Below are positions 10,067 through 31,667 of a stretch of 32,000 nucleotides of DNA, in pieces; the first letter of the stretch is position 1; each line of letters begins with the position of its first letter. The translations under genes were made by a program, and so were the position numbers. This DNA comes from Patescibacteria group bacterium (GTDB taxonomy: Bacteria > Patescibacteriota > Patescibacteriia > 2-01-FULL-39-33). The DNA lies in NCBI GenBank assembly GCA_041649575.1, contig JBAZMW010000003.1, positions 150,001-182,000 on the forward strand, in the 5' to 3' direction. The notes beneath the pieces are model-generated. The model saw only the letters and a list, made by a program, of their open reading frames with translations, made no database searches and was not told where the DNA came from.

Positions 10067-11113
10067 TTATATTTCTTTCTTTGTTTCAAGCAAGTCTTCC
10101 ACTGCCACGCTAAGTGCCGTAGCCACCGGCACCGAGAGTAAAACACCCAAAACGCCGGCCAGCCTGGCGCCGATTAAAACCACGATAATCACGATAACCG
10201 GATTTAAACCAACCGCTTTCTGCATTACCTTTGGCACTAGAACAGTGTTTTCTAATTGCTGGATGACAATATACAGAATAAATACCCACAGAGCCAAAAT
10301 CGGCGATTGGGTAAAAGCCACAAAGACAGCGGGTATTGCCCCCAAAAAAGGCCCCAGATAAGGAATAATCTCCGTCACGCCGGCAAAAAGGGCCAAAACT
10401 AAAGCATACTTGACCTGCAAGGCACTCAAGCCAATTAAACAAGCCAGAAAAATAATTAGCGATAAGGCCAGTTGCCCCCGAAACCACAACCCGATTTTTT
10501 CCTGCATGCGATTAATCAACTGGGAGACGTAAGGCTGGTATTTCACCGGCACCAAAAAACGTAGAGATCTTTTCAGGGCCTGCTCCTCTACTGTCATGTA
10601 AAAAGTGAGCATGATAATGATAAAAAAGGAAACAACGCCGCCGAAAAAAGAAAAAATCGTACCTAAAACGCTATTGGCGGCCAGACCGATATTAGATTGT
10701 AGAGCAGCCAGCGAATCGGAGACGCTTTTACCCCAGCCCTGCTGGTCGGAAAAATTTTGAATAGTACTAAATCCATTGTTAATTTTTTCCCAATAAAAGG
10801 GAAAATCTTTGGAAAGCTCGTTCACTTCGATGACAATCGGTGGTATGATTAAATAAATCGCTCCAGCAAGAACAGAAAAAAGAACCAGATAAATCAATAA
10901 GATGCCCACTACCCGAGGAATCCGATGCCTATGCAGCCACCCCACCCAAGGATCAAAAGCCGAAGTTAGAATTACAGCCACAAAAACTATCAAAATAATG
11001 TTTCTGATATAAAACAAAAAAACCAGAGAAATAACAATTACCAAAATTTTAATCAAGGTGACGGAAGAAATATTGATCGTTGTTTTTTTGTTTTCCTCTG
11101 ACATTTTTGGCAA
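10067..11113 (-). CDS. AI-2E (PerM/UPF0118) family transporter
   Basis: 348 aa, about 8 TM. The conserved C-terminal region (TEIIPYLGPFLGAIPAV...VPKVMQKAVGLNPVIVIIVVL) is typical of the family. The start is TTG 11113 or ATG 11104. Confidence 0.8.
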   Translation of the reverse strand: MPKMSEENKKTTINISSVTLIKILVIVISLVFLFYIRNIILIVFVAVILTSAFDPWVGWLHRHRIPRVVGILLIYLVLFSVLAGAIYLIIPPIVIEVNELSKDFPFYWEKINNGFSTIQNFSDQQGWGKSVSDSLAALQSNIGLAANSVLGTIFSFFGGVVSFFIIIMLTFYMTVEEQALKRSLRFLVPVKYQPYVSQLINRMQEKIGLWFRGQLALSLIIFLACLIGLSALQVKYALVLALFAGVTEIIPYLGPFLGAIPAVFVAFTQSPILALWVFILYIVIQQLENTVLVPKVMQKAVGLNPVIVIIVVLIGARLAGVLGVLLSVPVATALSVAVEDLLETKKEI

Positions 11114-19168: not shown

Positions 19169-19486
19169 TTATTTTAAATTCTCGCGCCAAGCCGCGACAT
19201 CGCCGGCCAGCTGTTCTTTGAAATTGGTGACCTCTTCCAAAATTATCGCCTGCAGATCAACCTTGCCGTTCAAAAACTGTCCGATTTCTTCGTCGGAGAC
19301 GCCTTTGGCGGTGAGTTTGTCAAACTCCAACTGATCCGGCTCGGAGAACTCATCCATCAGACGGAAAGAAACGCGGTCGCTAACCACCTCGTTTAGTTTG
19401 GTGAGTAAAACTTGTTTTTTGGCTTCATCCAGGTTTTCCAGGCCCAAAATGTTGAAAACATTCTGATCCAAAAAGAGTAAATTCAT
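19169..19486 (-). CDS. Small acidic helical protein, hypothetical; first gene of the giant-ORF operon
   Basis: 105-aa ORF, 25 nt upstream of and co-oriented with the giant ORF. Its pattern (LGLENLDEAKKQVLLTKLNEVV...) resembles small conserved CPR proteins, but I cannot name the family with confidence. Confidence 0.6.
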   Translation of the reverse strand: MNLLFLDQNVFNILGLENLDEAKKQVLLTKLNEVVSDRVSFRLMDEFSEPDQLEFDKLTAKGVSDEEIGQFLNGKVDLQAIILEEVTNFKEQLAGDVAAWRENLK

Positions 19487-19603: not shown

Positions 19604-19703
19604 GGGTGGCAAAATAAATAATTATTAACTAATTTTATTTATACTTTTTGGCTAAAATTAGATAATATTCTTGATAAAAAAGAAGCTTTTTTCTCAACTA
19701 CTA

Positions 19704-19732
19704 TTGACAAATTATTTATGGTATGCTATAAT
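19704..19732 (+). promoter_or_regulatory. Consensus promoter P_A (TTGACA-17-TATAAT with TGc extended -10)
   Basis: ttgaca at 19704-19709, tataat at 19727-19732, spacer exactly 17 nt. 31/34 identical to the promoter at 27944-27972 (minus). Confidence 0.75.
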
Positions 19733-19817
19733 GAGTAGTTCGGTAAGTAACCGAAAGCACATCACAAAGGCAGCCCTGGTAATGACACCGGGGTTCGCAA
19801 GAGAAAAGGAGAAGACG

Positions 19818-20798
19818 ATGGGTACGGACACAGGAATAGAGGACGATGTGGTGATTATTGGTGAGGACACCGGCATCGCTGACACCGGCATCGCTGACAC
19901 AAAGACGAGTCGGCCGAAGCGTAAAGTCGGAATCTGGCGGATCGTGCTGGGCCTGATCGGCCTGGCGCTCATCGCCTTCGCGGCATTGACCGCGTACGGC
20001 CTGATCGTCAAGACCGACGCGATTGACCGGCGTGTCGTCGTGCTGGAAAATCGCGTCGACGGTTTCGACGAACGCATCAAGGCCGGTGACGAGGCGGTCG
20101 AGGACATCTCCAAAGCCACCGACGATCTGTGGAGGCGAATGGCGAATGTCGAGAAACGCTTCGACAAGGATGGAGAATTCGCGAAGACCGTGGCCGCGGT
20201 TGCCAAGACCGCCGAAGACGTGACGGCGCTGCAAGCCGCGGTCGATGAAATCCCCGATGCCATGGCCGAGGCCACAGCTGGAATCGAAGGCCGGGTCAAA
20301 GCCCTCGAAGACGGCGCCGCGCAGGCACAGGAGAGGGCCAGCCGCGAGCTCCTGATGCTCAAGGTTGCCGAGATCCGCCGCGCGAATCCGGCGAGCGATG
20401 TCAGCGCCATGAGCGACGCGGACATTGGCAAGACGCTGGCTGGCAAGGGCGGCAACGATTTTCGCAAGAAGATTGAGGCCGCATACGTCAGCCTCGGAGC
20501 CAAGCCTGTCGTCACGGCACCAGCTCCGGCTCCAGCACCGGCACCAGCGCCAGCGGTAAATCTGGCTGAGGTAGAACGCCGGCTGGACGCGGCCGAGAAA
20601 GAAGTAAAACTTGTCGGGCAAGCCGCCAAAACCTTGGCGACGAATCCTGACAAGCCGAAGCACCTGGTGCGTGGCGCCAAGGCGAGGGCGCTCAAGCTGT
20701 TGGTGGATGTCCCCGACGACTTGCCACCCGCCTCCGCAAGACCGGCATCCCCGAAGAAGGACAACGTCATCCGGCCGGAGTTCGGGGACCGGCCGTAA
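19818..20798 (+). CDS. GC-rich hypothetical single-pass membrane protein with a long Ala/Glu-rich helical ectodomain (cassette A)
   Basis: AAGGAG (19806-19811) lies 6 nt before ATG 19818. The longer track ORF from 19671 would start upstream of the promoter. TM IWRIVLGLIGLALIAFAALTAYGLIV. Contains a DTGIA-DTGIA tandem (15-nt repeat at 19866-19895) and an (AP)6 tract (20518-20556). Confidence 0.7.
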   Translation: MGTDTGIEDDVVIIGEDTGIADTGIADTKTSRPKRKVGIWRIVLGLIGLALIAFAALTAYGLIVKTDAIDRRVVVLENRVDGFDERIKAGDEAVEDISKATDDLWRRMANVEKRFDKDGEFAKTVAAVAKTAEDVTALQAAVDEIPDAMAEATAGIEGRVKALEDGAAQAQERASRELLMLKVAEIRRANPASDVSAMSDADIGKTLAGKGGNDFRKKIEAAYVSLGAKPVVTAPAPAPAPAPAPAVNLAEVERRLDAAEKEVKLVGQAAKTLATNPDKPKHLVRGAKARALKLLVDVPDDLPPASARPASPKKDNVIRPEFGDRP

Positions 20799-20831
20799 CA
20801 CGTACCTTTGATCGCGCACCTCGTGCGTTAG

Positions 20832-20870
20832 CCCCCCCAGACTCTGGCAGTTTCATAGAGTCTGGGGGGT
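20832..20870 (+). terminator. Long hairpin after cassette A
   Basis: 13-bp perfect stem: ccccccagactct (20833-20845) / agagtctgggggg (20857-20869). The T-run is weak and delayed (gaattatttt). Confidence 0.6.
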
Positions 20871-20902
20871 GAATTATTTTAGAGAGATTTTGCTTTTATA
20901 TA

Positions 20903-20931
20903 TTGACTAAACAAGACAAAACTGATAAAAT
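20903..20931 (+). promoter_or_regulatory. Promoter driving the structured GC-rich leader plus tRNA-Asp
   Basis: TTGACT (20903-20908), a 17-nt spacer, then TGaTAAAAT (taaaat = 20926-20931). Confidence 0.65.
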
Positions 20932-20947
20932 TATTTTTGATATTTAT

Positions 20948-21254
20948 GGATTACTGCCCCCGCCAGAATGACTCTGTCGGGCTGGCGCCCGACTGAACGG
21001 CGTTCAGCCGTTCGGGCGGGGCTCAGTCTTGCCCCGTAGAATACTGCTAAAGCAGTAGCGCCAGAGGCGCTATTCTACGGGGTGAAGTTAGAGCGCTCCC
21101 CCTGTCACGGAAGAGGGTCGCCGTAGGCGACGGGCAGAAGCGAGCCATGAGCAAAGCGAATGAAACGAGCGTAGATGAATGCGACCATGGGAGCATTCGG
21201 CTCTGCCAGGAAACATCGGGTGCAACCCGCGACCGTCAAACTTTTTACAAGTTA
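20948..21254 (+). other. Degenerate tRNA-Asp-derived duplicate interrupted by GC-rich, highly base-paired inserts (candidate structured RNA or decayed element)
   Basis: It starts with the same atatttatggatt as the true tRNA-Asp 5' flank and 5' end. Positions 21087-21121 copy the tRNA D/anticodon arm (1 substitution, 2 one-nt insertions). There is a T-arm-like cgggtgcaacccg at about 21216-21228. It contains multiple perfect hairpins. Confidence 0.6.
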
Positions 21255-21262
21255 ATATTTAT

Positions 21263-21336
21263 GGATTGGTAGCTCAGTTGGTTAGAGCGCTCCCCTGTCA
21301 CGGGAGAGGTCGCGGGTTCGAGTCCCGTCCAGTCCG
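21263..21336 (+). tRNA. tRNA-Asp (anticodon GUC)
   Basis: Acceptor ggattgg/ccagtcc (one G:U pair), D arm gctc-agttggtta-gagc, anticodon arm ctccc-ctgtcac-gggag, T arm gcggg-ttcgagt-cccgt. Confidence 0.9.
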
Positions 21337-21347
21337 CTGGATAAAAC

Positions 21348-21377
21348 AAAAATCACCCTTGCGGTGATTTTTGTTTT
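21348..21377 (+). terminator. Terminator after tRNA-Asp
   Basis: aaaaatcacc-cttgc-ggtgattttt followed by gtttt. Confidence 0.75.
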
Positions 21378-21514
21378 ACTACACGAAGTGGAGAGGGGCT
21401 CGAACGGGTTGGCAGCGAGGCAAATCCGAAGGATGCAGCCGAGCGTCAAAAATTGCGAGCTGGCGCAGCAATTTTTGCCAACCCAGGACAGAGTGAGCAA
21501 AGCGAACGCCGAGA

Positions 21515-21531
21515 AGTCCCGTCCAGTCCGC
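21515..21531 (+). repeat. Exact 17-bp copy of the tRNA-Asp 3' end (att-like direct repeat)
   Basis: agtcccgtccagtccgc at 21515-21531 is identical to 21321-21337 within, and just past, the tRNA. Confidence 0.9.
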
Positions 21532-21541
21532 ATTTTTCTAG

Positions 21542-21565
21542 TCAGCCCCAAGTGGGCTGATTTTT
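21542..21565 (+). terminator. Second plus-strand terminator, directly after the duplicated tRNA 3' end
   Basis: tcagccc-caagt-gggctga followed by ttttt. Confidence 0.7.
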
Positions 21566-21640
21566 GAGAATAAAAAAGAGCGGCGATCCACACGACGGTG
21601 AATCTCCCGCTCTACAATGTCCTGATAGCCTTTCAGCGGT

Positions 21641-22369
21641 TTATCCTCTGCCACCGCCGACCAGTGCGCGTAACGCGTTGAACATGCCATCAGCCACTTG
21701 TGTCCTTCGCGTATCCATGGACTCAAGCATGGCATCGATCCTGTCGAAGCCGTCTCGACCGTACTCAAGAAGTGTTGGGCCATAGAATAGCCGCGTGAAC
21801 AGTTCATTACCGACAAAACTCCATTCGGTGTAAGGCGTCTCTGAGTAACCGTCAGAGTTGTCGTGGATGTCGAAAACCCTGTTGGTGTGCGTACCGGCGA
21901 TGAGAATATCGCCACCCTCGACTTGTCCGGTTACAGTCACCAACGCCTGTTGAAGCCTCTCCATAAAATACTCCTGGTACCACTCCCTGACTTTCGTCAG
22001 GACAATGTTTCTCGATTCCTCCGGAAGATTGGTGACAATGTGCCCGGTCTGCCTCGGACTGAGCCTGACCATCGAGTTGCTGCTCAACTTGTCCAAGAAC
22101 ACGCCCAGACCGATGTTCAACCAGAGGCCATCCGTGAGGTTGAGAATGGGAGAGTTGATGATAAAGATGTGTGTCCTAGCTTGATCTGGGTCCTGGGCAA
22201 TTCGACGAATGACCTCCAGTCCGTCTTGTTGGTTGAGACAAAGGTGGGGACGAAAACAGCTTTCTTTCGCTTGCACTAGGGCAGCAATTCCCCTGTTAAG
22301 ATCCTGGTGCAACTGTGACCGGTCGTCAAAGTCAACCAGTAGGGTGTGGCTTTTCTTCTGATCCGACAT
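21641..22369 (-). CDS. GC-rich hypothetical cytoplasmic protein (cassette B), 242 aa
   Basis: GAGGAG lies 6 nt before ATG 22369. No TM segment. The N-terminal half alternates beta/alpha like a Rossmann/receiver-type fold (TLLVDFDD ... HIFIINSPILNLTDGLW), but this is only a weak resemblance. Hairpin plus T-run terminator at about 21572-21613 (minus). Confidence 0.65.
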   Translation of the reverse strand: MSDQKKSHTLLVDFDDRSQLHQDLNRGIAALVQAKESCFRPHLCLNQQDGLEVIRRIAQDPDQARTHIFIINSPILNLTDGLWLNIGLGVFLDKLSSNSMVRLSPRQTGHIVTNLPEESRNIVLTKVREWYQEYFMERLQQALVTVTGQVEGGDILIAGTHTNRVFDIHDNSDGYSETPYTEWSFVGNELFTRLFYGPTLLEYGRDGFDRIDAMLESMDTRRTQVADGMFNALRALVGGGRG

Positions 22370-22412
22370 ATTCTTCTCCTCGATGTTGACCAAAGAATGT
22401 ACGATTGTTAAA

Positions 22413-22441
22413 AAGGTATACTAAATTAAGTATTTTGTCAA
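22413..22441 (-). promoter_or_regulatory. Candidate promoter of cassette B
   Basis: On the minus strand: TTGACA (22436-22441), a 17-nt spacer, then TACCTT (22413-22418). The -10 is weak. Confidence 0.35.
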
Positions 22442-22471
22442 ATACTAAAACATAATAACTCATTATTACTA

Positions 22472-22500
22472 TTGACAAGCCTAATATCTTGTGCTAAACT
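22472..22500 (+). promoter_or_regulatory. Promoter of cassette C (TTGACA-17-TGcTAAACT)
   Basis: ttgaca at 22472-22477, taaact at 22495-22500. Shares the upstream tactattgaca with the promoters at 19704 and 27972. Confidence 0.65.
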
Positions 22501-22579
22501 TACCAGTTATCGATTTTGAGTCAGTACTTTGTGTAGAGCACGACAAACCGGTTCCGTGACATGAACAGGAGGACGACCA

Positions 22580-22957
22580 GTGAAAAACCACAATAGTTAT
22601 GCCACTTACCAACCGAGCGACCAGCGGCTTCGCGAAGCCGACCACTGGGAGGTCTGGGATAAGCTACCGCCCGAGCTCAAGTTTGAGGCAGTGGCGGCTC
22701 GCGACCCCTCTCTGACCGCTCTGTGTGCCCGAGACAAGGGCGTGTACGTCTGGGTATTCCCGCACGCTGTACCTTCGGTCCAAAGTGGCATTGGACCATT
22801 CATGGCTCTAGGGTCGCGACGCGGCAAGGATCGCATGGACTTCATCGTGACAACTCCTTCGGCGGATGACCCCATCGCGTTCGCCAAAGCCGAGAATGCG
22901 AGAAAGCTGAGGGAGCTGTCAAAGGGCGCCAAGGGTCCGAAGAACCATCAGAAATGA
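22580..22957 (+). CDS. GC-rich hypothetical protein (cassette C), 125 aa
   Basis: AGGAGG lies 7 nt before GTG 22580. No TM segment and no recognisable motif. Weak hairpin terminator at 22995-23025. Confidence 0.6.
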   Translation: MKNHNSYATYQPSDQRLREADHWEVWDKLPPELKFEAVAARDPSLTALCARDKGVYVWVFPHAVPSVQSGIGPFMALGSRRGKDRMDFIVTTPSADDPIAFAKAENARKLRELSKGAKGPKNHQK

Positions 22958-23114
22958 GATGGGCGGTCGTCAAAGCCGCTACCGTCTCAACAACGCCGCA
23001 TCAGCTACCTGGTGCGGCCGTTTTAAATAATAATTTTGTTATACAGATACCAAAAGAGTTAATTTCCATCCACTCCAGAGTCCTCCGCCTAAGCTAAAGT
23101 TTTGGCGGACAAGT

Positions 23115-23190
23115 AAAACCTGCCTTGACTCGCGTCAGGCCTGGCGTCGCCGAAGGCTATGCCAAAGGCGCGTGAGGCAGGTCGTCCCGC
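23115..23190 (+). repeat. GC-rich intergenic element, copy X
   Basis: aaaacctgccttgactc...gaggcaggtcgtcccgc. The outer stem cctgcc (23119-23124) / ggcagg (23176-23181) encloses short GC hairpins. Homologous to 24196-24243. Confidence 0.6.
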
Positions 23191-23304
23191 AAGTCTCGGC
23201 AAAATAAACTCAGGACTCAATCACTTCCAAATCAATAAAATTTGCAAAAAGCGCTTTATATTTGATATAATAAAAACACGACTTAAAAAATAATTTATCT
23301 AACT

Positions 23305-23508
23305 ATGCAAAAAATAGCTACAAGCATCTTTATCTTCGCGTCAATTGTTTTCGGCGTTATAGGAATTTTAGTAGTTTTAACAATGCCAGGACCCGGCAGA
23401 ACGAATTCGGATCTGAATGAATTATTTATTAGGCTTCTGTTCGCGACTGCCTTTATTATACTGCCTTCATTTGCATTAAGCATCGCCGGTAAGTATCTAA
23501 AAAAATAG
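23305..23508 (+). CDS. Small two-TM membrane protein, hypothetical (AT-rich)
   Basis: 67-aa ORF with two hydrophobic helices. Upstream: TTGCAA, an 18-nt spacer, then TGaTATAAT (23242-23271). No SD. Confidence 0.5.
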   Translation: MQKIATSIFIFASIVFGVIGILVVLTMPGPGRTNSDLNELFIRLLFATAFIILPSFALSIAGKYLKK

Positions 23509-23745
23509 ATTCCGATTTTAAACTTCCTTAGTCCAGTCTTTATATCAGATGTTCTTCTTTTTTTAATTCCATTGGAATATCAACAATACCCCCGTGCTCT
23601 TAAAAAATTTACAATCTCAAAATTAATAAAAAAATCCCCATCAATGGGGGTATTTTTATTTTCTGTCTTCTCTGGCGCCTATAATTACTGCCGCTATTAC
23701 CAAAATTGTTAAAACCATAACTCCAAACAACATCATACCAAAATT

Positions 23746-24117
23746 TTACTTAATCTGTTTTTTCTTTTTAAACCAGCCGACGAGAAACAAGATGCCGATC
23801 AAAAACGCGACGCCGGAAAATTGTGCCGCCCATAATAATAAATACCACTCGAATTGATTTCTCGCTAGCGCGGCCAGATACAACGCGCCAGCTAAAATAA
23901 AAATAGTTCCCCCAACAATTTCATATTTCCAAGAGATTATCAGAATAACCAGCAGCACCAAGGCGGGAATATTGTGCATGAACAAACCGACAACCGTTCC
24001 CCAGAAACCCAGCTTCATATCGAAAATGTCCAGCGAAAACAACATCAAAAACAAAATAAACAAAATCGACAATATCCTTGGAATCCAATATATAAATCTA
24101 TTAACATTATTCCTCAT
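23746..24117 (-). CDS. Four-TM membrane protein, hypothetical (AT-rich)
   Basis: 123-aa ORF with four hydrophobic segments and a Lys-rich C-terminus. An extended -10 TGgTATAAT (24155-24163, minus) lies upstream. Confidence 0.65.
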   Translation of the reverse strand: MRNNVNRFIYWIPRILSILFILFLMLFSLDIFDMKLGFWGTVVGLFMHNIPALVLLVILIISWKYEIVGGTIFILAGALYLAALARNQFEWYLLLWAAQFSGVAFLIGILFLVGWFKKKKQIK

Positions 24118-24195
24118 ATTTATTGTTTTATTTATATAATCAGTCTTTGAGTTTATTATACCACTTCCTGCCCGTCTCGCCCAATCCGGAATTTT

Positions 24196-24243
24196 AAAAC
24201 CCGCCCCGACTCAACGAGGCTGGTGCGAGGCAGGTTGTCCCGC
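24196..24243 (+). repeat. GC-rich intergenic element, copy Y
   Basis: aaaacccgccccgactc (14/17 vs X) and gaggcaggttgtcccgc (16/17 vs X). The cctgcc (24167-24172) / ggcagg pairing is retained. Confidence 0.6.
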
Positions 24244-24419
24244 GGTCAGAACAGCTGCCGGTCGGCGCCAAGGCGGCTGCTTTAAAAATTTTAATTTTTT
24301 GCAAGCTGCACCAATGAATGTTAAAAATATTTCTTAAAAATAAATCAACCTTAAAATTTCTGGTAAATGAAAAAGGCCACCGCGACGTGCGATGGGCCTG
24401 TAGTCACTTCGCCACCTGT

Positions 24420-25199
24420 TTAGGCGGCTTCGTAAAGGTTCTGGTTGTAGTACTCCAACCGCAGACGGCCACGGCTGCCCTCGCCCGGTACGCCGACATA
24501 CTTGGTGACGCCGCAGTTGCGAGGCTTTTGTTCTTCGTCCAGTACGATGAACTCCTCGGCCGAGAGACGTTCGTAGTTGGCGCGCAGAGCCAGAATGTTC
24601 AAGTGATGGGTGACGGCCAAAACCCTCTTGCCGGAAAATTCCCGGACCAGGGTGTTGGCCCAATCGCGGTTACGCTGGCGCACATCAGGAACATTCTCAC
24701 CCTGAGGGTAGCGATACCAGTAGCGACCCTCCAATTGATACAACGCGCGCTGTTCCGGATGAAGAGCAAAAAACACTCTCAAATCGTTGTAGACGTTGAC
24801 CAGGCCGTGTTCCTGTTCCCGAATCCTTTCCTCTTCGTAGTACTTCACTCCTGCCAACTCCGGCCAACCGGCAATTAGCCCCCGCCAGGTCGCCTGCGTG
24901 CGAGCGTAGGGAGAAACGAAGACTACATCAGGCAGGTCTTCTATCTTACTAAGCGCCAGCCCCGTCTTCGTTGCCCGCGTGGCTTCGGCATCAGCTAGAG
25001 GTGCATTGGCATCGCTTACACCGAGACGATACTTCTGCCACACCGCTATAGCCAATGCCCTACACCTATCAGTTTCTGGGTTTTCGTCATACTTTCTGAC
25101 GAACTGCCGATAAAGATCGTCCGCCTCCTTCATCCACTTGAGCTGGTTGTAGGCAGAAACATCGTGCCTTATGGCAATGATACAGGCTGGCCATTTCAT
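24420..25199 (-). CDS. Histidine phosphatase superfamily (phosphoglycerate-mutase-like) protein, GC-rich (cassette F)
   Basis: Branch-1 catalytic pattern: RH in IAIRHDVSAYN, R in SPYARTQAT, E in REQEHG, H in AVTHHLNI. GAAGGAGG lies upstream of ATG 25199. Terminator hairpin at 24368-24400 (minus). Confidence 0.75.
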   Translation of the reverse strand: MKWPACIIAIRHDVSAYNQLKWMKEADDLYRQFVRKYDENPETDRCRALAIAVWQKYRLGVSDANAPLADAEATRATKTGLALSKIEDLPDVVFVSPYARTQATWRGLIAGWPELAGVKYYEEERIREQEHGLVNVYNDLRVFFALHPEQRALYQLEGRYWYRYPQGENVPDVRQRNRDWANTLVREFSGKRVLAVTHHLNILALRANYERLSAEEFIVLDEEQKPRNCGVTKYVGVPGEGSRGRLRLEYYNQNLYEAA

Positions 25200-25379
25200 G
25201 GGCGTCAAGCCTCCTTCAAAAGTCACTCTCGCTGCTCTGGCAATCTGTCGTTACCGCCAGAAACCCAGAAATCCCTCTCGTCTATAAACCACATAAAGAA
25301 CGGTTCCAGTTCATCGATCGCGTCGCTCCAAACGTCCTAATATTAAACGTTCAATCTCCCTTGTGTTGGAGAATAAATT

Positions 25380-25408
25380 ATTTTATTATATAAATTCCTT
25401 TTTGTCAA
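25380..25408 (-). promoter_or_regulatory. Promoter of cassette F
   Basis: On the minus strand: TTGACA (25403-25408), a 17-nt spacer, then TAAAAT (25380-25385). A second TTGACA lies 7 nt further upstream. It predicts a leader of about 170 nt. Confidence 0.55.
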
Positions 25409-25422
25409 CTGTCAAATTTTCT

Positions 25423-25451
25423 AAAACCCTCCCGATTAATCGGGAGGGTTT
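25423..25451 (-). terminator. Terminator of the pilin-like gene
   Basis: ccctcccg-attaat-cgggaggg flanked by A and T runs. Confidence 0.75.
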
Positions 25452-25475
25452 CAATTTTCAAACTCCGAGTTGCTT

Positions 25476-25991
25476 TTATTTTATTCCCAAAATTTCAAAA
25501 ATCATTTTCAGAATAACATAGGAGAGAAAAATAATCACCAGGCCGGCAATCGCCCAGATCATGGTGTTTTTGCCTTTAGTCACCCGGCCGGAATCGCCGC
25601 CGGAAACCATCCAGAGCAAGCCGCCGTAAATGAAAGCGATCAAAGCCAAGACTCCGGTGAACCCCAAGGCGGCGGTGATAATGTTTTTGGTGATGACTTG
25701 CACCGCCTCAATGCCTTTTTTGCCGCCGGTAATGCCCTCCAGGGGATCTTTCAGACTCTGGGCCGAACCAGCGCTGCCGCCAGAAACACCTGTACCTTCT
25801 GGAGCGGAAACACCTGTACCTTCGGCGACACATTCCCCAACCTCAGAAAAAGGGTCGGCAAAACTACAGATTTGACCAGGGCCGCAATCGGCTTTAGTAG
25901 TACAAGCTAAAACGATATTAGTGAGAGATAAAAATAAAAAAACAGAAAAACCAAAGAATGTTAATATCAACCAACCGCTTTTTCTTTTCAT
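25476..25991 (-). CDS. T4SS-pilin-like (VirB2/TrbC-like) small secreted membrane protein of the type common in CPR genomes
   Basis: N-terminal signal/TM segment, a Cys-containing region, a Gly/Ser/Thr linker, then two C-terminal TM helices with GGLLWMVSGGDSGRVTKGKNTMIWAIAGLVII. The family name is from memory (PF18895-like). Confidence 0.65.
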   Translation of the reverse strand: MKRKSGWLILTFFGFSVFLFLSLTNIVLACTTKADCGPGQICSFADPFSEVGECVAEGTGVSAPEGTGVSGGSAGSAQSLKDPLEGITGGKKGIEAVQVITKNIITAALGFTGVLALIAFIYGGLLWMVSGGDSGRVTKGKNTMIWAIAGLVIIFLSYVILKMIFEILGIK

Positions 25992-26061
25992 AATATGTTA
26001 TTAAATGGTATATATTAATTCAATTATAGCTAATGGCAAAAATAAAGTAAATAACAATTTT

Positions 26062-26107
26062 AACAAAAAGAAAAACGGCCCGAGTTGCGCGATGCAACCC
26101 TGGCCGT
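26062..26107 (-). terminator. Terminator of the three-gene GC-rich operon
   Basis: On the minus strand: aacggcc-agggttgcatcgcgcaactcg-ggccgtt followed by tttttcttttt. Confidence 0.7.
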
Positions 26108-26152
26108 TGTAGAACCGGTTGGAATTGGAATAGGTGGGTGATACAAGGCCGA

Positions 26153-26740
26153 CTATGAGAAGCGTATTCTCCTGATATGGACCTCTCCAATGGAGAGGCC
26201 GTGGAGAACCAGCTGACCCTCACCGTCGATCTTGATCACCTCGTCGCTGGCGATCGTCTGATAACCGCCCGCCTTCTGCTTGATCTTGAAAGGAGCGGTT
26301 ACGCGACTAAACTCCACGACGTCACCCGGGAAGATGGCCAGGCCGGAGCTGATCGGCTTACCAGGGCAGAACTTGATGTCCCTTTCCTCCACCGATCTGA
26401 TCGTCTTGGCCTTGGGCAACGAGGGCAAGCGAATGGCGCTGACTTTCGCCGCCACCTTCGCCTTGGCGTCGACCAGGTACGCGGGACGATAGATCGTCAC
26501 CAGGACCAAGGCCAGGCCTAGTCCAGCAGTGACGTAGAAAGCCTTTTTCTTGCCCATGGCCTCCCAGACGATCCCGCCGATACCCAGAAAAATCATCAGG
26601 GCAATAGTCGCCTGAATCGGAATCCTCGCATGCTGGTCGTCTTCCTGTGACCAGAAGAAGACGCCCAGGATAATCCCGATAACTACGGCGAAGGCAATCA
26701 CCTTGCCAACCTTCTTAAGAAAACCCCAGGCTTCCTTCAT
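26153..26740 (-). CDS. Hypothetical 3-TM protein with a C-terminal beta-rich domain of about 85 aa (operon gene 3)
   Basis: The ATG at 26740 overlaps the upstream stop (ATGA). GGAAGGAGG lies 7 nt upstream. TM helices at VIAFAVVIGIILGVFFW, ATIALMIFLGIGGIVW and AFYVTAGLGLALVLVTIY. Confidence 0.65.
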   Translation of the reverse strand: MKEAWGFLKKVGKVIAFAVVIGIILGVFFWSQEDDQHARIPIQATIALMIFLGIGGIVWEAMGKKKAFYVTAGLGLALVLVTIYRPAYLVDAKAKVAAKVSAIRLPSLPKAKTIRSVEERDIKFCPGKPISSGLAIFPGDVVEFSRVTAPFKIKQKAGGYQTIASDEVIKIDGEGQLVLHGLSIGEVHIRRIRFS

Positions 26741-27309
26741 GGCAGCATCCTCCTTCCTAGTAGCTTCCGCAAGATTTCGACTATGCCTTGGCCAGCCAGT
26801 TCGGACTTCAGATCCTTCCAGAATGTCCAACTCCCGGCACCCGTGGCACTTCCGGCACCACCAGCACTTCCGCTGACCGTACCACGTTTGGTAGCACCGG
26901 CCAGGGTATTGTGTATAGCGTCAGCCAGCTCTTCGCGAAAGCTGAGTATCAGATACACAATGGCTACTGGCCAAGTGAAGAAGGCCGCCTTCCACCACCA
27001 CCATGACGGACAGTTATTGGCCGGTGACGGTGGCGTCTCATAGCCAAACACTTTGTCGAGCTGATGGAATATGTCTCGGCTGGCCGAGAAGAATAGCCCT
27101 TCGCCAAAGCCAACGAAGAATGCTTCCGCCGTGAAGACGATGGCGACGATAACCAGTCCGCAGGCACGGTAGTTATTGTTATACACCAGCCGCGCCGCCA
27201 GGTAGCCACAGTCGTAACTGATTCTCTCTGTCGTCATGCATGCCAGAAAGAGAAACAGCCCGACCGCTCCCGCCAAGAAGGCGAGATTGAGTATTATCCA
27301 GTTGATCAT
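26737..27309 (-). CDS. Hypothetical 3-TM protein with a WWWW motif and a Gly/Ser-rich amphipathic tail (operon gene 2)
   Basis: The ATG at 27309 overlaps the upstream stop (ATGA). AAGGAGA lies upstream. Confidence 0.65.
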   Translation of the reverse strand: MINWIILNLAFLAGAVGLFLFLACMTTERISYDCGYLAARLVYNNNYRACGLVIVAIVFTAEAFFVGFGEGLFFSASRDIFHQLDKVFGYETPPSPANNCPSWWWWKAAFFTWPVAIVYLILSFREELADAIHNTLAGATKRGTVSGSAGGAGSATGAGSWTFWKDLKSELAGQGIVEILRKLLGRRMLP

Positions 27310-27809
27310 GACCGCGTCTCCTTTCTGTTCTTCTCTGCCTTGGGCCGTATTACCCCACGACGAACCAGTTCGTATTCGCGAACTTCCCTAAATGCGCCCC
27401 AAAAACCACCCATGTAGGACTTCTTGAATCTCGGTCCCAATATCGTGACGGTCTTGGTGTTCGCCTGGCTGCCCTTGTCCCTGAAGGTGAACATTTCACG
27501 TTTACCTCTGACTTGGTGCTCGTGGTGCCCACTTCCCTTTTCATCGGTAATGATGATCTTCTTCTTCCCGTCGTGGAGCATCACGATTTCGGTGCGTGGA
27601 ATGGGTCGACCATCCTCGGTGAACTGAACGACGAATGCGGTTTGGCCGTCATCGTCCGTGTCAAAGGTCACCTCAATATCGTACTCCGCAGCCGCCGGCT
27701 TCTTCTCTTCTTTCTTGGAATCGCCTCTCGACTGGCCGCACTTCACGCACCTACCGGCCTTGAAGAAATTCACATTTCCACAGCCGCACGTCCAACTCTC
27801 GTTTGCCAT
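27306..27809 (-). CDS. Hypothetical soluble protein with an N-terminal Cys4 zinc ribbon (operon gene 1)
   Basis: AGGAGA lies 8 nt before ATG 27809. The N-terminus WTCGCGNVNFFKAGRCVKCG is followed by a Lys/Glu linker and a beta-rich domain. The longer track ORF (to 27908) lacks an SD. Confidence 0.65.
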   Translation of the reverse strand: MANESWTCGCGNVNFFKAGRCVKCGQSRGDSKKEEKKPAAAEYDIEVTFDTDDDGQTAFVVQFTEDGRPIPRTEIVMLHDGKKKIIITDEKGSGHHEHQVRGKREMFTFRDKGSQANTKTVTILGPRFKKSYMGGFWGAFREVREYELVRRGVIRPKAEKNRKETRS

Positions 27810-27943
27810 GGCCTTACTCTCCTTTCCTAATCCAACCGTTCTGTTAAAGAACTGGGCTGGAAACCGTTTTCCCTTGTTATACCCCTCTTCGCCTTGAAAA
27901 GGAGTCATTTCAGGGGAAAGCCGTTCCTCCAGCCTAACATATA

Positions 27944-27972
27944 ATTATAGCATACTATCAATATTTTGTCAA
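27944..27972 (-). promoter_or_regulatory. Consensus promoter P_J (TTGACA-17-TGcTATAAT) of the three-gene operon
   Basis: On the minus strand: ttgaca at 27967-27972 and tataat at 27944-27949, spacer 17 nt. Near-identical to P_A. Confidence 0.75.
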
Positions 27973-28045
27973 TAGTAAATTAAATAAATAAAAATAGCTA
28001 AATTTAGCTAAAAACTTAAAACGCAAAGGTTAAAAAAATATAGAG

Positions 28046-28882
28046 TTAATCTTCTGCTTTAGGTTTTGAATTTTTACGCCTCGACTCGCCGAAGGCGAGA
28101 CAAGTAGCTTTGACTTTCAATATCCCTACGCCAGCTATGATTAATAGAACACTGATTATTTGCGGCAGCCTGATTCCCCACCACAGAGCCGTCTCGTCGA
28201 TACGGATAAACTCCATAAAAAATCTGATCAGCCCATAGCCGATAAAATAAATGGCCAAGAGCGACCCTGGCCGGCAGTTGTTTTTTCTGGCCAAAAGAAA
28301 CAAGATCAAAAACAAAACAAAATCCAAAACAGATTCATACAAAAAAGCGGGCTGGAAATATCGGTTTGACAAAAAAATTTCCGGACGATTTTTCGGTTCG
28401 ATGGGAATGCCCCAGGGCAAGTTGGTGGGCCGACCAAACAACTCTTGATTGAAATAATTGCCCCAGCGGCCAATGGCCTGGCCCAGGGCCAGAGCGGGAG
28501 CAGCCAAGTCGACTACTTGCCAAAAGGAAATTTTCTTTTTTCGGCTCCAAAAAATTACCACGATGATGCCGCCAATAATGGCGCCATGAATCGCCAGGCC
28601 GCCTTGCCAAATTTTAAAAATCTCCGGCAAGTTGTGACTGTAATAGGACCAATCCAAAACAAAAACCTGATAAAGACGGGCGCCCAAAATACCGCCGACA
28701 GCCAGCCAAAGGCCCAGGTCTAAAGCCAGCTCAAATTTTAGGCCTCTTCTTTTGGCCAGAGAGCCGGCGACCAGAATGCCCAGAAGCAAGCCCAAGACGA
28801 TTATCAGACCATACCAGCGAAACGAGAGCGGCCCAAACTGGAAGATAATCGGCTGCGGATAAAAATAATGAAAAAAATTCAT
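28046..28882 (-). CDS. lgt: Prolipoprotein diacylglyceryl transferase
   Basis: GPLSFRWYGL, GARLYQV, WQGGLAIHGAIIGG and GQAIGRWGNYFNQELFGRPTNLPWGI. An extended -10 TGtTATACT ends 7 nt before the ATG, so the transcript may be leaderless. Confidence 0.9.
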   Translation of the reverse strand: MNFFHYFYPQPIIFQFGPLSFRWYGLIIVLGLLLGILVAGSLAKRRGLKFELALDLGLWLAVGGILGARLYQVFVLDWSYYSHNLPEIFKIWQGGLAIHGAIIGGIIVVIFWSRKKKISFWQVVDLAAPALALGQAIGRWGNYFNQELFGRPTNLPWGIPIEPKNRPEIFLSNRYFQPAFLYESVLDFVLFLILFLLARKNNCRPGSLLAIYFIGYGLIRFFMEFIRIDETALWWGIRLPQIISVLLIIAGVGILKVKATCLAFGESRRKNSKPKAED

Positions 28883-28900
28883 ATCTTAAAGTATAACAGA

Positions 28901-28939
28901 AAAATAAAAAAAATCGACCCCCGAACCGGAGTTCGGGGG
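28901..28939 (-). terminator. Terminator of the small GC-rich unit upstream of lgt
   Basis: On the minus strand: cccccgaac-tccg-gttcggggg followed by tcgattttttttattttt. Confidence 0.8.
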
Positions 28940-28983
28940 AATTAAAGCTTTGACCAAAGAAGTTCGCTTGGAGCAGTACAGGA

Positions 28984-29208
28984 TTACGTGGTGCCGCAAT
29001 AGGCTGGCCGGTGGGAGCTGCGTCGCACAGTTCCTCTTGGCGGCCTTTCGGCTCTCCTGATCCGAGGGCGCTGAAGCGTGTTGGAGACTATCTGGTAGCC
29101 TCTCGCGACCAAGTCGCGGATGAATGCCTTCACCCTTCCACGTCCTTTCACCAGTGCCATATGCAGCTGATCCTTCAAATCCCGATACCTGACAAGATAC
29201 CTTCTCAT
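28984..29208 (-). CDS. Small Arg-rich protein, possible ribbon-helix-helix DNA binder (cassette L). Alternatively a 105-aa leaderless form starting at 29301
   Basis: AAGGAG lies 9 nt before ATG 29208. MRRYLVRYRDLKDQLHMALVKGRGRVKAFIRDLVARGY fits a strand-helix-helix pattern, followed by an Arg/Pro-rich tail. The coding status is itself uncertain. Confidence 0.35.
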   Translation of the reverse strand: MRRYLVRYRDLKDQLHMALVKGRGRVKAFIRDLVARGYQIVSNTLQRPRIRRAERPPRGTVRRSSHRPAYCGTT

Positions 29209-29309
29209 GCGCCATCGCTCCTTATGTTTTCCTCTGCCAGAATGCCCTATACTCATTTTCGACCAATCGGTTATGACCCTCCTTTCCAATGTCCACAGCA
29301 TGATTGTTT

Positions 29310-29338
29310 ATCATAGCACCAGGCAGGAGGTTTGTCAA
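29310..29338 (-). promoter_or_regulatory. Promoter of cassette L (TTGACA-17-TGcTATGAT)
   Basis: On the minus strand: ttgaca at 29333-29338 and tatgat at 29310-29315, spacer 17 nt. The first ATG (29301) lies 8 nt after the -10. Confidence 0.6.
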
Positions 29339-29360
29339 ACTTATCTTAAAGAAACTACGT

Positions 29361-30821
29361 TTAAACGGTTTCCACCTTGACCAAATTGGTCTTGCCCTGG
29401 CGGCCAAACGGATGGCCGGTGACAATAATTATGGTCTCGCTTTTTTTGGCCAGCTTGGCTGTTTGCACCAATGTCTTGATTTTGGCAATCAGGGCTTCGA
29501 AAGAATTAACCAGCGGCAAAACAAAAGCGCTCACCCCCCAGCTTAGGGACAGCTGATTGGCGGTAAAAACTGAGGGAGTCAGGGCAATGATAATGGCTTT
29601 GGGTCGAAAGCTGGAAATGTTTCTGGCGGTGGCGCCGGAAACCGTGGCGCAGGCAATCAACTTGACCTTAGTCAAATCCTCGGCCAAATCCTGGGCCACA
29701 AAACTCATTATTTTATTAAGCGATTGATTTTTGTATTTGTTTTCTTTGGCTTCTTGCTCCTCTATCTCCCTGGCCTCGATTTCTTTGGCAATGCGCGACA
29801 TCGCCGCCACGGCTCTAAGCGGATACTGACCGGTGGCGGTCTCTCCCGAAAGCATGATGGCGTCGGTGCCGTCTAAAACGGCGTTGGCCACATCGGAAAC
29901 TTCGGCGCGCGTCGGCAAAGGATTTCTGATCATCGAATCGAGCATTTGGGTGGCGACAATCACCGGCTTGCCGGCTTGCCGGCATTCGTCGATAATCTTT
30001 TTTTGAATCAGAGGCAAGTCCTCAAAGGGCAGCTCGATGCCCAAGTCGCCGCGGGCGATCATAATGGCGTCGGCCGCCGCCAAAATTTGCGAAAAATTCT
30101 TCACCGCTTCGCGGCGTTCGATTTTGGCAATAAGCTTGGTGTGCGCGCCACTAGTCTTGCTGCTGCCAGCCGGATAATATTTTTTTTCCAGAGCAAAAAT
30201 CTTTTTTCTTAAATTGACAATGTCTTTGGCGTCTTTGACAAAAGAGAGGGCGATAAAATCAACTTTGTTTTTGACGCCAAAATCGACATCGGCTAAATCC
30301 TTTTTGGTCAGTGGCGGACACTTGATAAGCGATTTAGGAAAATTCATGCCTTTGTGGGATTTGATGATGCCGCCGGTGATCACTTTGCAGACAATAGTGT
30401 CATTTTTGATTTTGGTGACGCTTAACTCAATGGTGGCGTCGTCGATTAAAACCGGCTGACCCGCCTTGAGGTCGCGGTATAGCTCTTTATATTGAATGGG
30501 AACGACGACAGCGGATTGGGACGACACTTGGCGCTTTGGGGGCACTAAAAAAACTTCCTGGCCGCGGCTGACTTTCAGGCCGGCTTGGCCCACTTCGCCG
30601 ATACGAATACGCGGCCCCTGCAAATCCTGAATAATGGCCAGCTGGCTTTTCAGGCTTTTGGCCACGGAACGCAAATTACCGATAAGCAACCGGTGGTGCT
30701 TGTAGCTGCCATGGGAAAAATTAAGACGCGCCACATTCAGGCCGGCTTTGATCATTTTTTCCATAATGATTTTGGTCTGAGAAGCCGGGCCAATGGTGGC
30801 TACGATTTTGGTGCGTTTCAT
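29361..30821 (-). CDS. pyk: Pyruvate kinase
   Basis: KIVATIGPAS, ARLNFSHG, MIARGDLGIE and ATQMLDSM motifs; 486 aa. Confidence 0.9.
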   Translation of the reverse strand: MKRTKIVATIGPASQTKIIMEKMIKAGLNVARLNFSHGSYKHHRLLIGNLRSVAKSLKSQLAIIQDLQGPRIRIGEVGQAGLKVSRGQEVFLVPPKRQVSSQSAVVVPIQYKELYRDLKAGQPVLIDDATIELSVTKIKNDTIVCKVITGGIIKSHKGMNFPKSLIKCPPLTKKDLADVDFGVKNKVDFIALSFVKDAKDIVNLRKKIFALEKKYYPAGSSKTSGAHTKLIAKIERREAVKNFSQILAAADAIMIARGDLGIELPFEDLPLIQKKIIDECRQAGKPVIVATQMLDSMIRNPLPTRAEVSDVANAVLDGTDAIMLSGETATGQYPLRAVAAMSRIAKEIEAREIEEQEAKENKYKNQSLNKIMSFVAQDLAEDLTKVKLIACATVSGATARNISSFRPKAIIIALTPSVFTANQLSLSWGVSAFVLPLVNSFEALIAKIKTLVQTAKLAKKSETIIIVTGHPFGRQGKTNLVKVETV

Positions 30822-31633: not shown

Positions 31634-31667
31634 AAAAAAACCCTCCCGCTTAAGCGGGAGAATTTTT
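31634..31667 (-). terminator. Terminator after groEL
   Basis: ctcccgc-ttaa-gcgggag, followed on the minus strand by ggttttttt. Confidence 0.8.

Follow-up and report, generated by a model that had tools for sequence, protein, structure and literature searches.

We analysed a stretch of 32,000 nucleotides, hereafter the window (C3:150001-182000), from the genome of a tiny, uncultured Candidatus Buchananbacteria-like bacterium (Parcubacteria/Patescibacteria). This genome (G000) comprises 920,072 bp in five contigs (C1-C5) with 43-46% GC, and is estimated to be 97.9% complete and 1.09% contaminated. We focus on a variable locus within the window, bounded by L20 and pyruvate kinase (pyk), where two classes of genes alternate: AT-rich genes of host type, and GC-rich units with expression signals of their own, which we designate A, B, C, F, the O1-O3 operon and L. 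Comparisons were made with the 30 nearest genomes (G0xx), 18 of them of the same family. Because these relatives all belong to other genera, all comparisons are deep, with core genes at 47-66% protein and 64-74% DNA identity. Searches used concatenated protein queries, and in the large samples two candidates were scored per genome, so that weak matches may escape.

The gene order in the family is m142, m107, pyk, lgt, an operon of a zinc-ribbon and two membrane protein genes, a pilin gene, and then, after further genes, tRNA-Asp, a DUF5663-like gene with a giant gene, L20 and IF3. L20 lies directly beside tRNA-Asp in G009, G012 and G013; L20, tRNA-Asp and lgt fall within 2 kb in G018, and tRNA-Asp adjoins lgt in G018 and G016. 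Given this compact layout in the relatives, the locus has expanded in the studied genome.

GC-rich units and their expression signals

Blocks of 0.52-0.65 GC (at 19.8-20.9, 21.0-22.3, 22.6-23.1, 24.2-25.3, 26.2-27.9 and 28.9-29.3 kb) are separated by AT-rich spacers of 0.26-0.40 GC. An initial annotation, made from the sequence alone, had described GC-rich units amid AT-rich DNA; its counts of 37 G+C in the 60 nt at 20161-20220 and 12 of 60 at 10981-11040 are exact, and all coding coordinates of the units hold on re-checking, the 74-codon frame at 28984-29208 that it gave for unit L being the best reading there. A further GC-rich stretch that it did not list, 20800-21640, is RNA (tRNA-Asp plus structured elements) and not coding. 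Overall the units have 52-63% GC and a GC content at third codon positions (GC3) of 0.63-0.74, versus a GC3 of.465 for the AT-rich class of the genome. The AT-rich neighbours have GC/GC3 values of 0.37/0.37 (the small membrane protein gene m67), 0.39/0.52 (DUF7670), 0.47/0.48 (pilin) and 0.46/0.54 (lgt). Amino acid composition as the sole cause of GC richness was ruled out, since GC3 is raised by 0.16-0.27.

Also as initially described, each of the six units (orientations + - + - - -) carries its own promoter, Shine-Dalgarno sequence (SD) and terminator. The promoters are of the sigma-70 type, mostly with a TG extension, and match the consensus at 9-12 of 12 positions, that of unit B being the weakest (9/12); the SD sites are 6-8 nt long, with AAGGAG, GGAGG or GAGGAG lying 5-10 nt ahead of every GC-rich start; and hairpins with T-rich tails (-16 to -29 kcal/mol) follow A, B, C, F, O3 and L. 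Promoter-like sites number 35 in the stretch, compared with 16.4 +/- 3.8 in shuffled sequences. The interleaved AT-rich genes are indeed SD-less, with no SD at m67, DUF7670, the pilin gene, lgt, pyk, the giant gene or its partner. No family of direct or inverted repeats is shared among the flanks of the units, and the hairpins differ in sequence; the sole long similarity among the flanks is between the promoters of A and of the operon (77% over 56 nt, in inverted orientation). None of the GC-rich units has a paralogue in the genome.

Unit A (19818..20798, plus strand; GC 0.63, GC3.74) encodes a membrane-anchored coiled-coil protein of 326 aa that contains DTGIA and PAPAPA repeats. It lies downstream of a TTGACA-17-TATAAT promoter with a TG extension (19704-19732, plus; 12/12), has the SD AAGGAG, and is followed by a terminator at 20825..20878 (plus; -28.7 kcal/mol, T-rich tail). 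At 19866-19895 an exact in-frame 15-nt repeat codes for DTGIA twice, and a PAPAPAPAPAP linker is encoded at 20515-20554. Unit B (21641..22369, minus; GC 0.52, GC3.63; SD GAGGAG) encodes a 242-aa soluble orphan protein; its weak, divergent promoter (22449-22478, minus) overlaps that of unit C, and its terminator lies at 21577..21613 (minus; -20 kcal/mol, tail TTTTTATTC). Unit C (22580..22957, plus; GC 0.58, GC3.67; SD AGGAGG) encodes a 125-aa orphan protein from a GTG start, between a promoter at 22472-22500 (plus; 10/12 with TG) and a terminator at 22995..23018 (plus). Unit F (24420..25199, minus; GC 0.55, GC3.63; SD AAGGAGG) encodes a 259-aa histidine phosphatase (branch 1), with its promoter at 25408-25380 (minus; 11/12) and its terminator at 24377..24395 (minus).

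The operon, on the minus strand, starts from a promoter at 27972-27944 (12/12 with TG) and ends at a terminator at 26074..26108 (-22.5 kcal/mol, tail TTTCTTTTT). O1 (27306..27809; GC.53, GC3.66) encodes a 167-aa protein in which an N-terminal CxC...CxxC zinc ribbon can be read directly from the sequence. O2 (26737..27309; GC.55, GC3.63) encodes a 190-aa multi-pass membrane protein; its start overlaps the stop of O1, through which the two are probably coupled. O3 (26153..26740; GC.56, GC3.74) encodes a membrane protein with 3-4 helices and a predicted C-terminal cupin-like beta-barrel domain. Unit L (28984..29208, minus; GC 0.57, GC3.64) encodes a 74-aa basic protein, with the SD AAGGAG 9 nt ahead of its ATG, a promoter at 29338-29310 (minus; 11/12 with TG) and a terminator at 28918..28939 (minus).

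Two gene classes across the genome

Gene GC content is bimodal across all five contigs, with 123 of 901 crude open reading frames (ORFs) at 0.515 GC or above. GC contents at first, second and third codon positions are.58/.48/.63 for the GC-rich class versus.47/.35/.47 for the AT-rich class. Filtering at 100 aa or more and GC3 of at least 0.58 leaves 77 GC-rich genes, which form 55 blocks: 40 of a single gene, 10 pairs, 3 triplets and 2 quadruplets. Products of the class are enriched in membrane and low-complexity proteins. There is a modest enrichment of GC-rich genes less than 1 kb from tRNA genes (19% versus 9%, p=0.008). The codon usage of the GC-rich class correlates with that of the AT-rich class at only r=0.33, compared with r=0.94 for ribosomal-like basic proteins. 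Because the ribosomal-like proteins side with the AT-rich class, the GC richness is not an effect of expression level, and the codon usage of highly expressed genes was ruled out as its cause.

We observed a substantial difference in the use of SD between the two classes. An SD of at least 5 nt is present in 45% of GC-rich versus 2% of AT-rich genes when the longest start is taken, and in 73% versus 12% when the best start is chosen; the odds ratio for SD-led genes is 39 (p=2e-30). The 3' end of the 16S rRNA (...GGATCACCTCCTTTCT) retains the anti-SD CCUCC. Promoters with at least 11/12 matches and a TG extension precede 14 GC-rich and 7 AT-rich genes (odds ratio 13, p=5e-8), at a GC-rich share of only 14% of ORFs. 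Since some AT-rich genes use the same consensus, this extended -10 promoter is the host's own type, in keeping with the initial view that the units are wired with host-type promoters. The start regions fold at -10.9 kcal/mol in GC-rich versus -5.3 in AT-rich genes (p=5e-25), and the 25 nt upstream of host genes have only 25% GC (non-ORF DNA, 37%). We infer that translation of host genes starts from unstructured A/U-rich leaders, a mode that GC-rich genes, with start regions about twice as structured, would therefore be unable to use, so that they would need an SD.

The link between SD and GC content is also found at the loci of relatives (38% versus 5%, and 31% versus 10%). The layout of the GC-rich units is a genome-wide feature, present in relatives and not peculiar to the window. 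As about half of Parcubacteria lack the anti-SD according to a published survey (PMC9297842), weak use of SD in this group is in itself unsurprising; the notable part is the split between SD-led and SD-less genes inside one genome. It offers a natural test bed, in SD-poor bacteria, for two kinds of mRNA served by one ribosome.

A recent lateral arrival among older and patchy units

Unit B has only two homologues among 5.8 billion proteins and no relatives in the GTDB species genomes; the model of its fold is poor, with a mean predicted local distance difference test score (pLDDT) of 52.5. In L039, an ENA metagenome contig, a B homologue lies beside tRNA-Asp and L20, as it does in the studied genome. 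The two share 84% DNA identity over 844 nt, including the terminator, compared with 64-74% for flanking core genes. At four-fold sites, identity is 0.67 for B (n=90) versus 0.44 pooled over six core genes (n=421). This synonymous similarity above that of the core shows that B moved laterally after the two lineages split. A third copy (46% identical) forms a lone promoter-SD-gene-terminator unit among unrelated genes in a different neighbourhood. Moreover, B in L039 is preceded by a 98-aa gene whose 61% homologue in the studied genome lies on another contig, at C1:242266-242547 in the GC-rich end of C1; cargo is thus shuffled among loci. The contig with the third copy also shows by eye an S-box (SAM-I)-like leader (L040, ~930-1060) ahead of a membrane protein gene.

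Units A, C and F are patchy, and are either fast-evolving or exchanged within Patescibacteria. No relative of unit A was found in the 30 nearest genomes or in 400 genomes of the phylum; its sole relative is a 28%-identical gene for a membrane-anchored coiled-coil protein in L039, at the same position (the L20 side of tRNA-Asp) and also GC-rich (0.55-0.64). Unit C has no match in the set of 5.8 billion proteins; its one homologue, 42% identical, belongs to G353, a genome from a distant family of Patescibacteria. Unit F was the product that the initial annotation had assigned as a histidine phosphatase, and this stands: it matches Pfam PF00300 (His_Phos_1) at 51.1 bits versus a cut-off of 21.7, and the motifs 'IAIRHD' (residues 8-13) and, downstream, 'VTHH' can be read directly. 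Its relatives, at 50 loci across Patescibacteria classes, are 39-65% identical, with a GC content that mostly tracks the host genome (mean excess +0.036); in the family it occurs in one of 18 genomes (G008), beside pilin genes.

The operon has a different history. In at least 10 of the 18 family genomes (G002-G010 and G017), orthologues of O1-O3 occupy the interval from lgt to the pilin gene, with 22-45% amino acid identity where core genes have 47-66%. A search of 294 genomes from other families of the class did not find the operon. Orthologues of O2 adjoin lgt in G003, G004, G005, G006, G007, G009, G010 and G017 (22-38% identity). Nine of the loci could be read (G003-G010 and G017). In seven of these (G003, G005, G006, G007, G009, G010, G017) an O1-type zinc ribbon (CxxC...CxxC) heads the operon; GC content is higher by 0.05-0.12 in most of the nine, GC3 is raised in six, and at least one gene is SD-led, with no SD seen on the flanking lgt, pyk and pilin genes. 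Judged by its fixed position across the family and its divergence, the operon is an old resident and not a recent import. Among 1.84 billion representatives, only 11 are relatives of O3; its last 85 residues are conserved. The predicted structure of its C-terminal domain is confident (block-mean pLDDT 90-98 over residues 121-190) and its fold matches are cupin/double-stranded beta-helix proteins (E 7.5e-5 to 1e-3, template modelling score on target 0.45-0.62). G139, D140, F151 and G181 are invariant, and this predicted cupin-like beta barrel shows neither a conserved histidine pair nor a conserved metal motif.

Since mutation pressure is towards AT (non-ORF DNA has 37% GC), a high GC3 in so old an operon calls for either a standing force or repeated replacement. 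The standing force may be selection, or GC-biased gene conversion where recombination has a hot spot; alternatively, distant versions of the same module may recombine into place by way of the conserved flanks. Repeated replacement agrees somewhat better with the uneven excess of GC3 that the relatives show. No close donor was found for the operon. The run of lgt, operon and pilin gene is the only conserved neighbourhood of the locus and could be a functional one.

Unit L is probably an old resident as well, with positional counterparts in relatives: the spacer between pyk and lgt holds a small ORF (45-90 aa; L019-L035) in most of them, SD-led in several and with a similar predicted beta-helix-beta pattern. 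In their own right, these small ORFs constitute an unannotated positional gene family across the family of genomes.

Explanations for the GC-rich units

The reading we favour, at a probability of roughly 60%, is that the units are moron-like accessory genes of mixed age in a two-class genome, and not one system. Morons are promoter-gene-terminator units inserted among the conserved genes of phages, e.g., HK97 and lambda-like phages. One class would be the host core, AT-rich with a GC3 of about 0.47, its genes read from A/U-rich, unstructured leaders without SD. The other would be an accessory class of about 77 lineage-specific genes in 55 mostly single-gene blocks with their own codon usage, each unit placing a GC-rich frame, led by a strong SD, between a TTGACA-17-TGnTATAAT promoter of host consensus and a hairpin terminator. 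Each unit would be transcribed alone and translated by pairing of its SD with the anti-SD CCUCC that the 16S rRNA keeps. B would have come recently, to a place beside tRNA-Asp, by lateral exchange between lineages of the family; A, C and F would be patchy, fast-evolving or exchanged within Patescibacteria, the operon would be an old resident, and L probably another. The products would serve unrelated functions, being mostly membrane or surface proteins plus the histidine phosphatase, and the non-coding 20.9-21.6 kb would represent two copies of a tRNA-targeting structured mini-element together with tRNA fragments. Such a mix of long-resident genes and recent imports does not make one new machine. 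Several observations weigh against this reading. The protein-coding units are flanked by no recombinase, att site, attC site or target duplication; no donor was found for any unit, the best matches outside being 40-46% identical; and a fixed position, saturated divergence and GC3 of 0.63-0.74 fit a simple old acquisition poorly. The class signature is not uniform among relatives, as the GC3 of the operon is not elevated in G005 and G007. The orthology of unit L rests on weak similarity (E 7e-4 to G013; E 3e-7 between G010 and G012; both in a tiny database). Finally, gene calls were crude longest ORFs, which blurs the SD statistics.

Two simpler histories, each of which we regard as unlikely, place all units at one end of this mixture. 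If all had been imported recently and piece by piece from donors outside the lineage that are GC-richer and use SD, such as a host bacterium, and were not yet ameliorated, this would account for the foreign-like codon usage of the GC-rich class, for its use of SD that the host class is without, for the clearly recent arrival of B, for the absence of A, B and C from the 30 relatives and their near absence from the 400 phylum genomes, and for the enrichment near tRNA genes (19% versus 9%, p=0.008). However, the operon holds the same position in at least 10 family genomes at deep divergence, probably as does L, and A has a positional homologue in L039; the relatives of F are all in Patescibacteria-type genomes with a GC content mostly tracking the host; the promoters fit the host consensus; and no donor appeared in the 5.8 billion proteins, the 1.84 billion representatives, the GTDB species genomes or the viral contigs. 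Piecemeal acquisition, as initially proposed, stands for B as a recent lateral arrival, with its 84% DNA identity to L039, and not for the operon. The converse idea, equally unlikely in our view, is that the heterogeneity is purely native: fast-evolving surface genes inherited vertically, with their GC kept high by biased gene conversion or selection on mRNA and without any transfer. The operon, syntenic, GC-elevated in most of the relatives read and SD-led there, fits this well, as do the membrane and low-complexity proteins among the products and the AT mutation pressure implied by a non-ORF GC of 0.37, under which the GC3 of old genes needs some force. The initial annotation had reasoned that genes at the same loci in relatives would be native, and this largely applies to the operon, probably to L, and to A (in L039). 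It does not apply to B, whose synonymous similarity to L039 is far above that of the core. Nor does vertical descent suit F, present in one of 18 family genomes and yet 50-60% identical to copies in distant classes, or C, whose sole relative belongs to a distant family, or the gene next to B in L039, which sits at another locus here.

That the units together form one accessory system (for defence, secretion or surface), anchored on the pilin gene and lgt, is improbable. They are physically clustered, several encode membrane proteins, and the operon always lies between lgt and the type IV secretion system (T4SS)-type pilin gene; but A, B, C and F do not accompany the operon in the 30 relatives, promoters and terminators are separate, orientations are mixed and ages differ. 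The suggestion of an undescribed accessory system was consequently not supported: neither co-occurrence in relatives, nor paralogues, nor shared repeats, nor any PADLOC, PHROG or NCBIfam signal speaks for it. The accompanying remark that this is not one contiguous island was correct, the units being independent promoter-SD-gene-terminator modules. A chimera of assembly or binning, with GC-rich foreign pieces joined into an AT-rich backbone, is very improbable. The assembly is metagenome-derived and the GC steps are sharp, on a scale of 200-300 nt, as a chimera might give; against this, each unit has core genes on both sides within one 191-kb contig, an independent ENA assembly shows the B/tRNA-Asp/L20 layout too, about 10 independent genomes share the lgt-operon-pilin order, and the spacers hold host-consensus promoters aimed at the GC-rich frames, with contamination estimated at 1.09%.

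A bolder extension of the mixed-age reading, which we put forward as doubtful, joins two proposals: a genome of two regimes, in which an SD-less AT-rich core coexists with a circulating pool of SD-dependent GC-rich cassettes, and a new kind of mobile element, R1 (described below). In such a genome, cassettes with a perfect host promoter would move between lineages and loci without a recognisable recombinase site, DNA uptake and recombination at variable slots would be the likely route, and some slots, such as lgt-pilin and pyk-lgt, would time and again take up distant versions of one module. Repeated refilling would explain how a fixed position can go together with deep divergence and unameliorated GC3. 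R1, for its part, would be a miniature structured mobile element of a new kind that targets tRNA genes.

For the study of ultra-small bacteria, GC-rich and SD-led does not simply equal recently acquired: composition-based calls of foreign DNA would flag all units here, though some are family-wide at a fixed position. The accessory class houses lineage-specific membrane and surface proteins of episymbiont-like cells, and the neighbourhood of lgt, the zinc-ribbon/membrane/cupin operon and the pilin gene provides a concrete target. The two-class split in SD and GC, and the R1 element, are the parts most deserving further work.

Comparison with known systems

Like phage morons, the units here are transcriptionally self-contained and atypical in composition, have conserved neighbours and carry unrelated cargo; they have their own promoters and terminators and stand between genes that are adjacent in relatives. 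In contrast to morons, they reside in a cellular chromosome, and the window is free of phage genes; their GC content exceeds that of the host, whereas morons are AT-richer; and some are family-old and positionally fixed. IMG/VR contained no relatives of B, C or F, and a PHROG search of the window proteins gave only weak coiled-coil noise.

Up to 13% of the genome length of Patescibacteria derives from horizontal gene transfer, mostly within the phylum and often of single genes, according to passages of a study of individually transferred genes and small genomic islands (mSystems 2025, PMC12455944). The individually transferred genes in those passages are single genes of about 0.9 kb, and likewise 40 of the 55 blocks here are singletons. 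The passages do not report a split between SD-led and SD-less genes or family-wide units of foreign appearance, and a word search of that paper finds no mention of promoters.

Integron cassettes, including clusters of attC sites lacking integron-integrases (CALINs), are similarly short, mostly single-gene units of unknown function with a hairpin after each ORF. However, integron cassettes are usually promoterless, while the units here each have a promoter, mixed orientations and ordinary T-tailed terminators. An integron or CALIN array was ruled out, as there is no attC-like shared repeat and no integrase, in addition to the mixed orientation and own promoters. A prophage, an integrative and conjugative element or a genomic island at tRNA-Asp was ruled out for the protein-coding units, which show no integrase, no phage family and no bracketing repeats. 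A defence island was ruled out as well: PADLOC gave only two coiled-coil matches for A, at chance level (E 8e-4 and 4e-3). NCBIfam gave no assignment for the units.

A structured element beside tRNA genes

The RNA stretch between units A and B has its own promoter (TTGACT-17-TAAAAT with TG; 20903..20931, plus) and contains an intact tRNA-Asp (GTC; 21263..21337, plus) flanked by two copies of an element of about 85 nt, R1. Copy a (21129..21214, plus; 96.4 bits) lies 48 nt upstream of the tRNA and copy b (21403..21490, plus; 43.2 bits, E 8e-7) 65 nt downstream, as scored with a covariance model built from four copies. R1 has six copies in the genome, all beside tRNA genes, the others being at C4:102425-102509, C1:111531-111601, C4:27906-28001 and C1:66541-66636. 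One to 18 copies occur in 14 of the 18 family genomes, with essentially none outside the family, and of 30 copies fetched, 22 have a co-oriented tRNA no more than 150 nt away. In the alignment, 95% of cells are paired and 15 of 18 pairs vary on both sides; the covariation score is 0.413, versus 0.154 for shuffled alignments (0/500 reach it) and 0.01-0.06 when the structure is slid, although the alignment was fitted to the model. A search of 4227 Rfam covariance models, at the gathering threshold and at E up to 10, gave no match but tRNA. R1 is thus an undescribed structured motif, supported by covariation, that matches no Rfam family.

In most copies, the far side of R1 carries an exact duplicate of the end of the adjacent tRNA. 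Of the upstream copies, 8 of 9 have the 5' end repeated, from positions 1-11 up to 1-47; of the downstream copies, 11 of 14 have 9-26 nt of the 3' end repeated. In the window, the duplicate at the upstream copy is an internal tRNA stretch (positions 19-33), and that of copy b is an exact 17-nt duplicate of the tRNA-Asp 3' end (21515..21531, plus). These duplicates read as marks of insertion into tRNA genes, by an element that leaves an intact gene behind. A pseudo-tRNA with introns, considered for 20948-21240, was replaced by R1 insertion with a target duplicate. Integrative elements that target tRNA genes are islands with tyrosine integrases that duplicate the 3' part of the tRNA. R1 resembles them in lying beside intact tRNA genes with an exact duplicate of the tRNA end on one side, and differs in that its inserts are about 150-200 nt, lack an integrase, occur on both 5' and 3' sides and have a covarying stem-loop core. 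Only 177 nt of RNA-like sequence separate the two copies of the 17-nt repeat (21321-21337 and 21515-21531), and unit B lies outside them. Since R1 brackets no protein unit, it does not account for the arrival of the units.

Further small sequences surround R1. At 20948..21122 (plus), an incomplete copy of the 5' part of tRNA-Asp (positions 1-5 and 19-52) is split by a 135-nt GC-rich insert of nested palindromes (20953-21087). This insert has a 35-nt exact copy at C4:47367-47401, beside tRNA-Ile and 16S rRNA, and a 30-nt copy (97%) at C2:92839-92867, and may represent another small repeated element. L039 has a small GIY-YIG ORF (2658-2900, minus) placed between the tRNA and R1, and G021 has one just beyond R1. 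Such stand-alone nuclease-like ORFs (~80 aa) were seen at that place in L039 and at L107 1680-1889, with a 44% homologue in the studied genome at C1:39032-39250.

Neighbouring genes and other sequence features

The right border of the variable stretch, pyk (29361..30821, minus), and the adjacent lgt (28046..28882, minus; GC.46, GC3.54; Pfam LGT, 255 bits; 47-62% identity in relatives) are SD-less core genes. Left of unit A, the giant gene (13297..19143, minus), encoding a 1948-aa membrane protein, is of host type (GC3 0.41, no SD) and provides context rather than a cassette; a 27%-identical homologue in G004 adjoins the partner gene and L20. This 105-aa partner (19169..19486, minus; no SD) is DUF5663-like (Pfam E 0.0028, below the cut-off), and is 44% identical and syntenic in G004.

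Among the AT-rich genes within the stretch, m67 (23305..23508, plus) encodes a 67-aa membrane protein without SD, from its own promoter at 23242-23271. Its DNA is 82% identical to a gene on a non-syntenic contig of G011, and because this exceeds the 66-72% of core genes, m67 may be mobile or unusually constrained. The SD-less gene for a DUF7670 membrane protein (23746..24117, minus; Pfam PF24709, 103 bits) also has DNA matches in relatives at other loci. The T4SS-type (TrbC/VirB2-like) pilin gene (25476..25991, minus; Pfam PF18895, 37.5 versus 26.6 bits) is of host type, without SD (GC.47, GC3.48), has seven paralogues in the genome and is syntenic in 10 relatives. An exact in-frame 17-nt repeat with 24-nt spacing (25783-25823) codes in it for EGTGVS twice. 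Its terminator, 3' of the gene, is a perfect 28-nt palindrome (AAACCCTCCCGATT/AATCGGGAGGGTTT; 25424-25451), a reused bidirectional terminator hairpin of which copies 86-92% alike occur at gene ends at window positions 31637-31666 and at C3:154585-154616, C4:51780-51808 and C4:96083-96118.

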